The position numbers were made by a program, and so were the translations under genes. From Escherichia coli (GTDB lineage Bacteria; Pseudomonadota; Gammaproteobacteria; Enterobacterales; Enterobacteriaceae), in assembly GCF_045037415.1 (NCBI RefSeq), contig NZ_CP173438.1: a stretch of DNA of 64,000 nucleotides; one strand, written 5' to 3'. The notes under the pieces are model-generated. The model was not told the DNA's origin. It saw only the letters and a list, made by a program, of their open reading frames with translations, and did no database searches. Below, piece after piece: positions 62,992-64,000 of this stretch. The first letter of the stretch is position 1. Every line of letters begins with the position of its first letter.

Positions 62992-63450
62992 ATGGAAATT
63001 GCATCGAATAAAGGCGTCATTGCAGACGCTTCGACCCCGGCGGGTCGTGCTGGAATGAGTGAGAGCGAGTGGCGAGAAGCGATCAAATTCGACAGTACTG
63101 ACACTGGCTGGGTGATTATGAGTATCGGGATGGCGATTGGCGCGGGGATTGTTTTTCTCCCGGTGCAGGTCGGTTTGATGGGATTGTGGGTATTTTTGCT
63201 CTCATCGGTGATTGGTTACCCGGCAATGTATCTGTTTCAGCGGTTGTTTATTAATACGCTGGCAGAATCACCAGAATGTAAAGATTACCCGAGCGTCATC
63301 AGCGGTTATTTAGGTAAAAACTGGGGCATCCTGTTAGGTGCACTCTATTTCGTAATGCTGGTGATTTGGATGTTCGTCTATTCCACCGCCATCACCAACG
63401 ATAGTGCTTCCTACCTGCATACCTTCGGCGTGACGGAAGGGTTGCTGTGA
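62992..63450 (+). pseudogene. yhaO: yhaO (cyuP) serine/cysteine transporter gene, truncated after about 151 codons by IS insertion
   Basis: ORF MEIASNKGVIADASTPAGRAGMSESEWREAIKFDSTDTGWVIMSIGMAIGAGIVFLPVQ... is the N-terminus of a HAAAP-family transporter expected to be about 440 aa (paralog of tdcC); stop codon TGA at 63448 is supplied by the IS terminus. Confidence 0.85.
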
Positions 63451-64000
63451 AGTGGTCAACAAAAACTGGCCACCGAGTTAGAGTTTTTTCCAGTATCGAT
63501 TTTCCGATTCGTTTGGTGGTAACCCACCATTATATTCGTGCGGTCTTAGTGCGCTGTAATATCCAACGATATAGTCCGTTATTGCGTGAGCTGCATCGCT
63601 GAAGCTTACATAGCCCGTCGCCGGCACCCATTCGTTCTTCAGACTCCTGAAGAAGCGCTCCATTGGGCTGTTATCCCAGCAGTTTCCACGCCGACTCATA
63701 CTCTGCCTGATCCGGTATCTCCACAGTAACTGCCGGAACTGCCTGCTCGTATAATGACTGCCTTGATCGCTGTGGAACATCACCCCGACGGGCTTACCAC
63801 GGGTTTCCCATGCCATTTCCAGTGCTTTCATGGTAAGCCTGCTGTCCGGCGAGAACGACATGGCCCAGCCCACTGGTTTTCTTGCGAACAGGTCGAGAAC
63901 AACGGCGAGGTACGCCCAGCGCTTACCCGTCCAGATATAGGTCACATCACCGCACCACACCTGATTTGGCTCGGTCACGGCGAACTGCCGTTCAAGGTAG
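63448..64000 (-). mobile_element. IS3-family insertion sequence, one end (terminus 5'-TGAAGTGGTCAAC...) plus 3' part of transposase gene; element continues beyond window
   Basis: abrupt loss of yhaO reading frame at TGAAGTGG; adjacent minus-strand ORF encodes IS3-family OrfB C-terminal region. Confidence 0.85.
63478..64000 (-). CDS. IS3-family transposase OrfB (DDE integrase-core domain), C-terminal portion; 5' part outside window
   Basis: ORF 63478..63978 translation ...[35 protein letters not shown]...[50 protein letters not shown]... carries the D..D(35)E retroviral-integrase-like signature of IS3-family OrfB; frame stays open to window end. Confidence 0.85.

Follow-up and report, generated by a model that had tools for sequence, protein, structure and literature searches.

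What has become of the cyuP (yhaO) gene at the end of this stretch of the E. coli chromosome, and what does its fate mean for its operon partner cyuA (yhaM)? In the window, i.e., the whole 64,000-nt stretch that was analysed, the cyuP open reading frame (ORF) runs on the + strand from 62992 to a TGA ending at 63450. It encodes 152 amino acids, all of which are native CyuP/YhaO by comparison with K-12. The initial annotation had put the break after about 151 codons; the truncation stands, and the exact count is 152. The 5′ fragment (62992..63447, codons 1–152 of 443) is recognizable from a protein identical to the K-12 protein over residues 1–152, from the NCBIfam serine/threonine transporter model TIGR00814, and from synteny. 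The fragment aligns to TIGR00814 profile positions 1–119 of 397, and its score of 168.4 bits is far under the full-length cut-off of 525.8 because the gene is truncated: 152 residues are left of a transporter that should have 443. The gene is a disrupted pseudogene, and RefSeq annotates it likewise. Since the truncation leaves only the first third of the transporter, CyuP is certainly inactive, and the loss of function that was proposed at the outset follows directly from the cut.

Upstream of cyuP, a consensus scan of the identical locus of strain JJ1886 (L001 5489..5509) picked up a hairpin resembling a terminator behind tdcG, with the sequence GGGTGCACAAAATGTGCACCC and then a T run (window 62738..62758, + strand). 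This hairpin is predicted to separate the tdc operon from the cyuPA unit. The tdcG-cyuP intergenic region that follows (62759..62991, + strand) holds the CyuR/Crp-dependent cyuP promoter in K-12; the consensus scan returned a weak sigma-70-like match there (62766..62793, 9/12) that is no better than chance.

What ends the reading frame? The stop codon at 63448..63450 consists of the first three bases of the terminus of an insertion sequence (IS), TGAAGTGGTCAACAAAAACTGGCCACC, as the initial annotation had it; TGAAGTGGTCAACAAAAACTGGCCACC is present once in the window and in 0 of 100 shuffles. The right terminal inverted repeat (IRR) occupies 63448..63483 on the − strand, starting TGAAGTGGTCAAC..., and all 36 of its 36 nt match the IS911 “IRRa” oligonucleotide; the adjoining primer O5 site matches too (PMC2909936 Table 1). 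Just inside, 63478..64000 on the − strand codes for the last 173 residues of an OrfB of the IS3 family, with its stop codon at 63478..63480. The earlier recognition of a transposase with a DDE core on the opposite strand is confirmed by the profile searches. Specifically, the OrfB part scores 221.8 bits against NCBIfam NF033516 (transpos_IS3; cut-off 160) over profile positions 206–368 of 369, the Pfam integrase core rve matches with E = 5e-32, rve_3 and rve_2 also match, and all three catalytic-motif contexts are readable in the translation. A search of the window for a second IRR or left-end (IRL) sequence with up to 3 mismatches, or for a composite structure, detected no end but this one.

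The IS extends past the end of the window, and its far end was examined in a public genome, that of E. coli JJ1886 (ST131 H30Rx), which matches 57250..64000 of the window with 0 mismatches in 6,751 bp. The 553 bp of IS in the window (63448..64000, − strand) are 100% identical to positions 1–553 of the copy in JJ1886 cyuP, and to many other copies carrying the RefSeq product name “IS3-like element ISEc52 family transposase”. Identity to these annotated copies marks the 553 bp as the right-hand part of a 1,250-bp ISEc52 (IS3 family, IS911-like) that runs past the window end. The JJ1886 copy is 1,250 bp long and has an orfA of 100 aa and an orfB in the −1 frame, both intact, and the motif A AAA AAG lies between them; what RefSeq flags as “frameshifted” is the programmed frameshift. 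Its IRL, which lies outside the window, starts TGAAGTGGTTTAC..., so that the ends of the element, with IRL read in JJ1886, are 5′-TG...CA-3′. The repeats are imperfect: IRR and the JJ1886 IRL pair over the first 9 nt, after which comes GGCCACC. Partly by way of the JJ1886 copy, then, the element has what is expected of the IS3 family, namely a DDE transposase, TG/CA ends, orfA and orfB with A AAA AAG, and a 3-bp target duplication.

The name ISEc52 is taken from RefSeq/PGAP product names rather than from an ISfinder reference sequence. The legend to Fig. 3 of PMC9241692 calls the cyuP-disrupting element of ST131 ISEc58, where RefSeq says ISEc52 for the same sequence. Aligned over 1,096 bp with a copy that is labelled IS911 family, the element shows 94.1% identity. 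Judged by sequence, it belongs to the IS911 type within the IS3 family, and ISEc52 is its name in current annotation. The first guess at the element, “IS911/IS600-like”, was thus half right: the IS911 part agrees with the 36-nt IRR identity and the 94% match to an IS911-family copy, and the IS600 part is rejected because the terminus is that of IS911 IRR. At the single plasmid locus that was looked at, the annotation lists an IS600-family gene as an element distinct from the IS911-family gene beside it.

What lies on the far side of the insertion? In JJ1886, CTG flanks the 1,250-bp IS on either side, and K-12 has a single CTG at the insertion point (...GGGTTGCTGTCAGACAG...). The left CTG of the duplication, placed at 63445..63447 from the JJ1886 flanks and K-12, is also the last native codon, Leu152. 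Past the IS, JJ1886 continues with the remainder of cyuP and, 27 bp on, an intact cyuA. The order tdcE-tdcF-tdcG-cyuP′ in the window, followed past the IS by ′cyuP-cyuA in JJ1886, is the gene order of K-12. RefSeq annotates both cyuP halves of JJ1886 as pseudogene fragments and the IS between them as ISEc52. Deleting the IS and one CTG from JJ1886 gives a 1,332-nt ORF (443 codons) that differs from K-12 cyuP by 14 nt and 2 aa, V218M and M355I being the sole amino acid changes. These results place the insertion at codon 152/153, restore the ORF, and supply, as CTG, the target-site duplication of 3–4 bp that had been anticipated; an IS match exists and the downstream sequence breaks the yhaO frame, so both of the outcomes that the initial annotation had said would undo it failed to appear. 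In this strain, the sequence beyond the window should consist of 697 bp more of ISEc52, CTG, TCAGACAGTCCC... (cyuP codon 153 onward), and cyuA, because identical genomes show this far junction.

The likeness to JJ1886 is not confined to the end of the window: positions 1..50000 are identical save for one 1-bp indel. This indel, the sole difference from JJ1886 in the 64 kb, is an extra T at 47813..47814 (GGTTC in the window, GGTC in JJ1886), in the garD-garP intergenic region; the ST131 genomes Ecol_AZ146 and Ecol_AZ153 match JJ1886 here, and the extra T is either private to this strain or a sequencing error in a homopolymer. A separate observation concerns tdcR, the small activator gene that lies upstream of tdcA (window ~53401..53619, − strand). 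According to RefSeq annotation, tdcR is a pseudogene with an internal stop in 5 of 5 ST131 genomes (JJ1886, AZ146, AZ153, CD306, and SaT040).

The preferred reading is that cyuP, which opens the cyuPA operon, has received a copy of ISEc52 by transposition at codon 152/153, in the orientation opposite to its own. The element duplicated the 3-bp target CTG, and its IRR provides the immediate TGA stop. Taken as a whole, the explanation (an ST131-H30R chromosome with ISEc52 in cyuP, CyuP lost, and a presumed polar effect on cyuA) has a probability of roughly 93%.

How widespread is this allele? Of 5,426 complete E. coli genomes, 277 (5.1%) contain a full-length match to a 401-bp query spanning the IRR-side junction, and 274 contain the junction on the IRL side, making the event a simple insertion in ~99% of carriers. 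ISEc52-type sequence as such is present in 4,075 of the 5,426 genomes, and just 277 have the cyuP junction. Carriers of the junction include JJ1886, JJ1887, JJ2434, uk_P46212, and EC958 (H30Rx) and MNCRE44 (H30R1). An intact cyuP with flanks that are 100% identical is found in CD306 (H30S), SaT040 and G749 (H22), ZH063 (H35), and SE15, which we take to be H41/clade A. Subclone labels of the named ST131 strains, SE15 excepted, are from PMC4933990 Table 1.

A second marker, a 42-mer with the JJ1886 codons for the parC S80I+E84V double mutation, occurs in 371 of the 5,426 genomes, one of these matches being on a record labelled plasmid. The junction, intact-cyuP, and parC searches were compared over the first 60 rows of each, with tied rows in constant order. 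Among the best 60 of the 371 parC double mutants, 52 have the junction, 7 have an intact ST131-type cyuP, and 1 is in neither list; conversely, the parC S80I+E84V allele is found in 52 of 52 junction carriers within the comparable rows. Because every junction carrier compared is a parC double mutant, the insertion belongs to the fluoroquinolone-resistant H30R part of ST131. It is a lineage-wide, annotated allele of ST131-H30R and not a peculiarity of one strain. The source of the window can be typed indirectly from its near-identity to JJ1886 and its lineage junction, which point to an ST131-H30R (clade C) chromosome; fimH, gyrA, parC, and the MLST loci lie outside the window.

Could the insertion be one end of something larger? 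Inversion or deletion between ISEc52 copies could have moved the 3′ part of cyuP and cyuA elsewhere or removed them, and the raw material for such an event exists, with ISEc52 in 3–11 places per ST131 genome among the matches listed. Moreover, for 3 of the 277 carriers no second junction is found at a coverage of at least 80%. Against this, the other 274 carriers have both junctions, a second ISEc52 end is absent from the window, and the rest of the window is collinear with JJ1886 and almost identical to it over the two segments compared (1..50000 and 57250..64000). A rearrangement of this kind is therefore very unlikely.

The simple ISEc52 insertion favoured here is not fixed throughout H30R. 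A 42-mer around allW (ybbW) nt 723, which we take to be the H30Rx-typing SNP, was drawn from JJ1886 (locus L005 19003..19044) and matches 191 of the 5,426 genomes, including 5 of 5 H30Rx references; MNCRE44 has no match, so the 42-mer acts as a marker of H30Rx. All four combinations of this marker and the IS were found. Both are present in JJ1886 and EC958, and the marker is present with the IS absent and cyuP intact in Ecol_AZ146, Ecol_656, CP015085, M24, M70, and SCAID WND1-2021. Genomes negative for the marker have the IS in MNCRE44, ZH193, and 81009, and an intact, IS-free cyuP in Ecol_AZ153, C7, C9, and E302. A precisely empty cyuP site is thus found in a minority of both the H30R1-like and the H30Rx-like genomes. 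Because all four combinations occur in a clonal lineage, the insertion state has changed more than once.

Where do the empty sites come from? In Ecol_AZ146 (L006) and Ecol_AZ153 (L007), the intact cyuP occupies 19795..21126 of the respective locus. When compared with the corresponding JJ1886 locus (L009) from which the IS has been deleted, each is 100.000% identical over 39,148 bp. A SNP in yhaK, 3,047 bp from the insertion site (L009 ~24498), reads A in JJ1886, AZ146, and AZ153 and G in CD306 and SaT040. This SNP lies ~3 kb past the window end and is the sole difference between JJ1886 and CD306 in the 39 kb around cyuP. Recombination with clade B/C0 was considered as the source of the intact H30R alleles and is unsupported: the 39-kb flanks are 100.000% JJ1886-like and carry the H30R-side yhaK allele. 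The empty sites appear, from their sequence context, to sit in an H30R-type flank and do not look like obvious imports from older clades; a very short recombination tract or a clade C donor is possible. More generally, the empty sites may have arisen by precise loss, by exchange within clade C, or by repeated gain. The insertion in the ~277 genomes is probably one inherited event, and repeated gain within H30R is possible as well.

What are the functional implications of the insertion? CyuP is a high-flux cysteine importer, and cyuPA is a single operon that is induced by CyuR and cysteine and depends on Crp (PMC9040844). In K-12, cyuP is intact and cyuA follows 27 bp after it; together with the published operon, this agrees with what the initial annotation said of K-12, i.e., an intact yhaO co-transcribed with yhaM. 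In the anoxic formation of sulfide from cysteine, CyuA is the main source (PMC9040844). A mutant with a non-polar cyuP deletion can grow at millimolar cysteine, which still enters via other importers, and is outcompeted by orders of magnitude at 0.2–1 mM (PMC9040844). There is also a report of D-serine uptake by YhaO in EHEC (PMC4699771).

The consequences for cyuA likely stem from the length of RNA that separates it from its promoter. Before reaching cyuA, transcripts from the cyuP promoter would have to run through the IS in antisense (1.25 kb) and then through untranslated cyuP sequence (0.88 kb), ~2.1 kb in all, and Rho-dependent polarity could then lower cysteine-induced expression of cyuA. 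Translation of the 3′ cyuP fragment from inside the IS can be rejected, since the frame is closed by a stop four codons ahead of the junction and no start codon falls between the two. A consensus scan of the stretch up to cyuA found only one weak hairpin, inside the IS, and, in what is a weak test, no promoter-like site on the + strand between the IS and cyuA at the scan threshold. Because ~2.1 kb of untranslated RNA precedes cyuA and no promoter was found between, polarity on cyuA is likely. The balance tips in favour of a Rho-dependent mechanism, and cysteine-induced cyuA expression is probably strongly reduced. Some expression of cyuA could persist if transcription reads across the IS or starts at a promoter that the scan did not recognise. 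The phenotype to be expected would be weaker anaerobic use of low cysteine and less CyuA-dependent sulfide. It may be mild, because other importers bring in millimolar cysteine.

A different outcome would be that the IS has rewired the operon, for example, by an outward promoter that makes cyuA constitutive and independent of CyuR. The ends of IS3-family elements are able to supply promoter elements, and the IRR of IS911 has an outward −35 that serves in the circle-junction promoter. Here, however, IRR points to the 5′ cyuP fragment, away from cyuA, and the sequence 17 bp past its −35 is not −10-like. IRL does face cyuA, yet the scan already mentioned found no promoter-like + strand site between the IS and the gene. 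Rewiring is as improbable as rearrangement, and polarity from the ISEc52 insertion remains the preferred account of cyuA. Finally, that the IS was mis-joined to a truly intact cyuP by an assembly or sequencing error would fit a window that ends inside the IS with one junction alone visible, and can practically be dismissed: complete genomes assembled independently of one another show the same junction (277 of them) and the opposite one (274), the 3-bp target duplication is clean, and the ORF is perfectly restored once the IS is removed.

Why does the loss of cyuP matter? First, for genome annotation it has no consequence, since it is a routine IS-disrupted pseudogene that RefSeq already flags. 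Second, the cyuP junction is a cheap marker for most ST131-H30R strains, which has modest value. Third, the most successful multidrug-resistant E. coli clone would mostly be without its dedicated cysteine importer and possibly have reduced CyuA desulfidase, and this bears on work that ties cysteine-derived H2S to antibiotic tolerance and gut fitness. Fourth, natural H30R isolates with and without the IS, with identical flanks, are a ready-made comparison. It is conceivable, and on present evidence unlikely, that cyuP::ISEc52 is more than a neutral passenger: as fluoroquinolone-resistant ST131-H30R rose, the allele could have been selected for its effect on cysteine catabolism and H2S output, and it could be under selection still. 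If so, continuing selection would explain why empty sites reappear in the H30R1-like and H30Rx-like minorities. The event itself is an ordinary IS knockout in a well-studied clone and is already known, both flagged in RefSeq and in print. What is still of interest is how the loss affects the physiology of a pandemic clone and why both H30R sublineages contain filled sites alongside precisely empty ones.

How does the insertion compare with known systems? The legend to Fig. 3 of PMC9241692 states that in blood isolates of ST131 an IS commonly interrupts cyuP. The gene, the lineage, and the kind of event are the same as those described here, whereas the paper is silent on the junction, its distribution over clades, and any phenotype. 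In ST69, cyuP is the commonest site of chromosomal integration of ISEcp1-blaCTX-M-14 (PMC9241692). Since the ST131 IS insertion and the ST69 integration affect the same gene, cyuP is hit repeatedly by mobile elements in different clones. Among the papers searched for ST131 in combination with yhaO, cyuP, cyuA, or yhaM, none deals with what the loss entails. Connolly et al. 2016 (PMC4699771) described yhaO as highly conserved, with a pseudogene in 52 of 1,581 E. coli/Shigella genomes (3.29%). This figure, from a survey without lineages or lesions, resembles the 5.1% found here for one allele alone. The element has its closest counterpart in IS911, first described in Shigella dysenteriae. The two share the 36-nt IRR, the O5 site, a length of 1,250 bp, TG...CA ends, orfA and orfB with the A AAA AAG −1 frameshift site, and a 3-bp target duplication. 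They differ in ~6% of nucleotides (measured against the IS911-family-annotated copy), in an IRL that departs internally from the IRR-type sequence, and in the RefSeq name ISEc52. Copies of ISEc52 elsewhere in E. coli, on chromosomes and on IncHI and other plasmids, are 100% identical to this one over the 553 bp, and only the insertion site differs.
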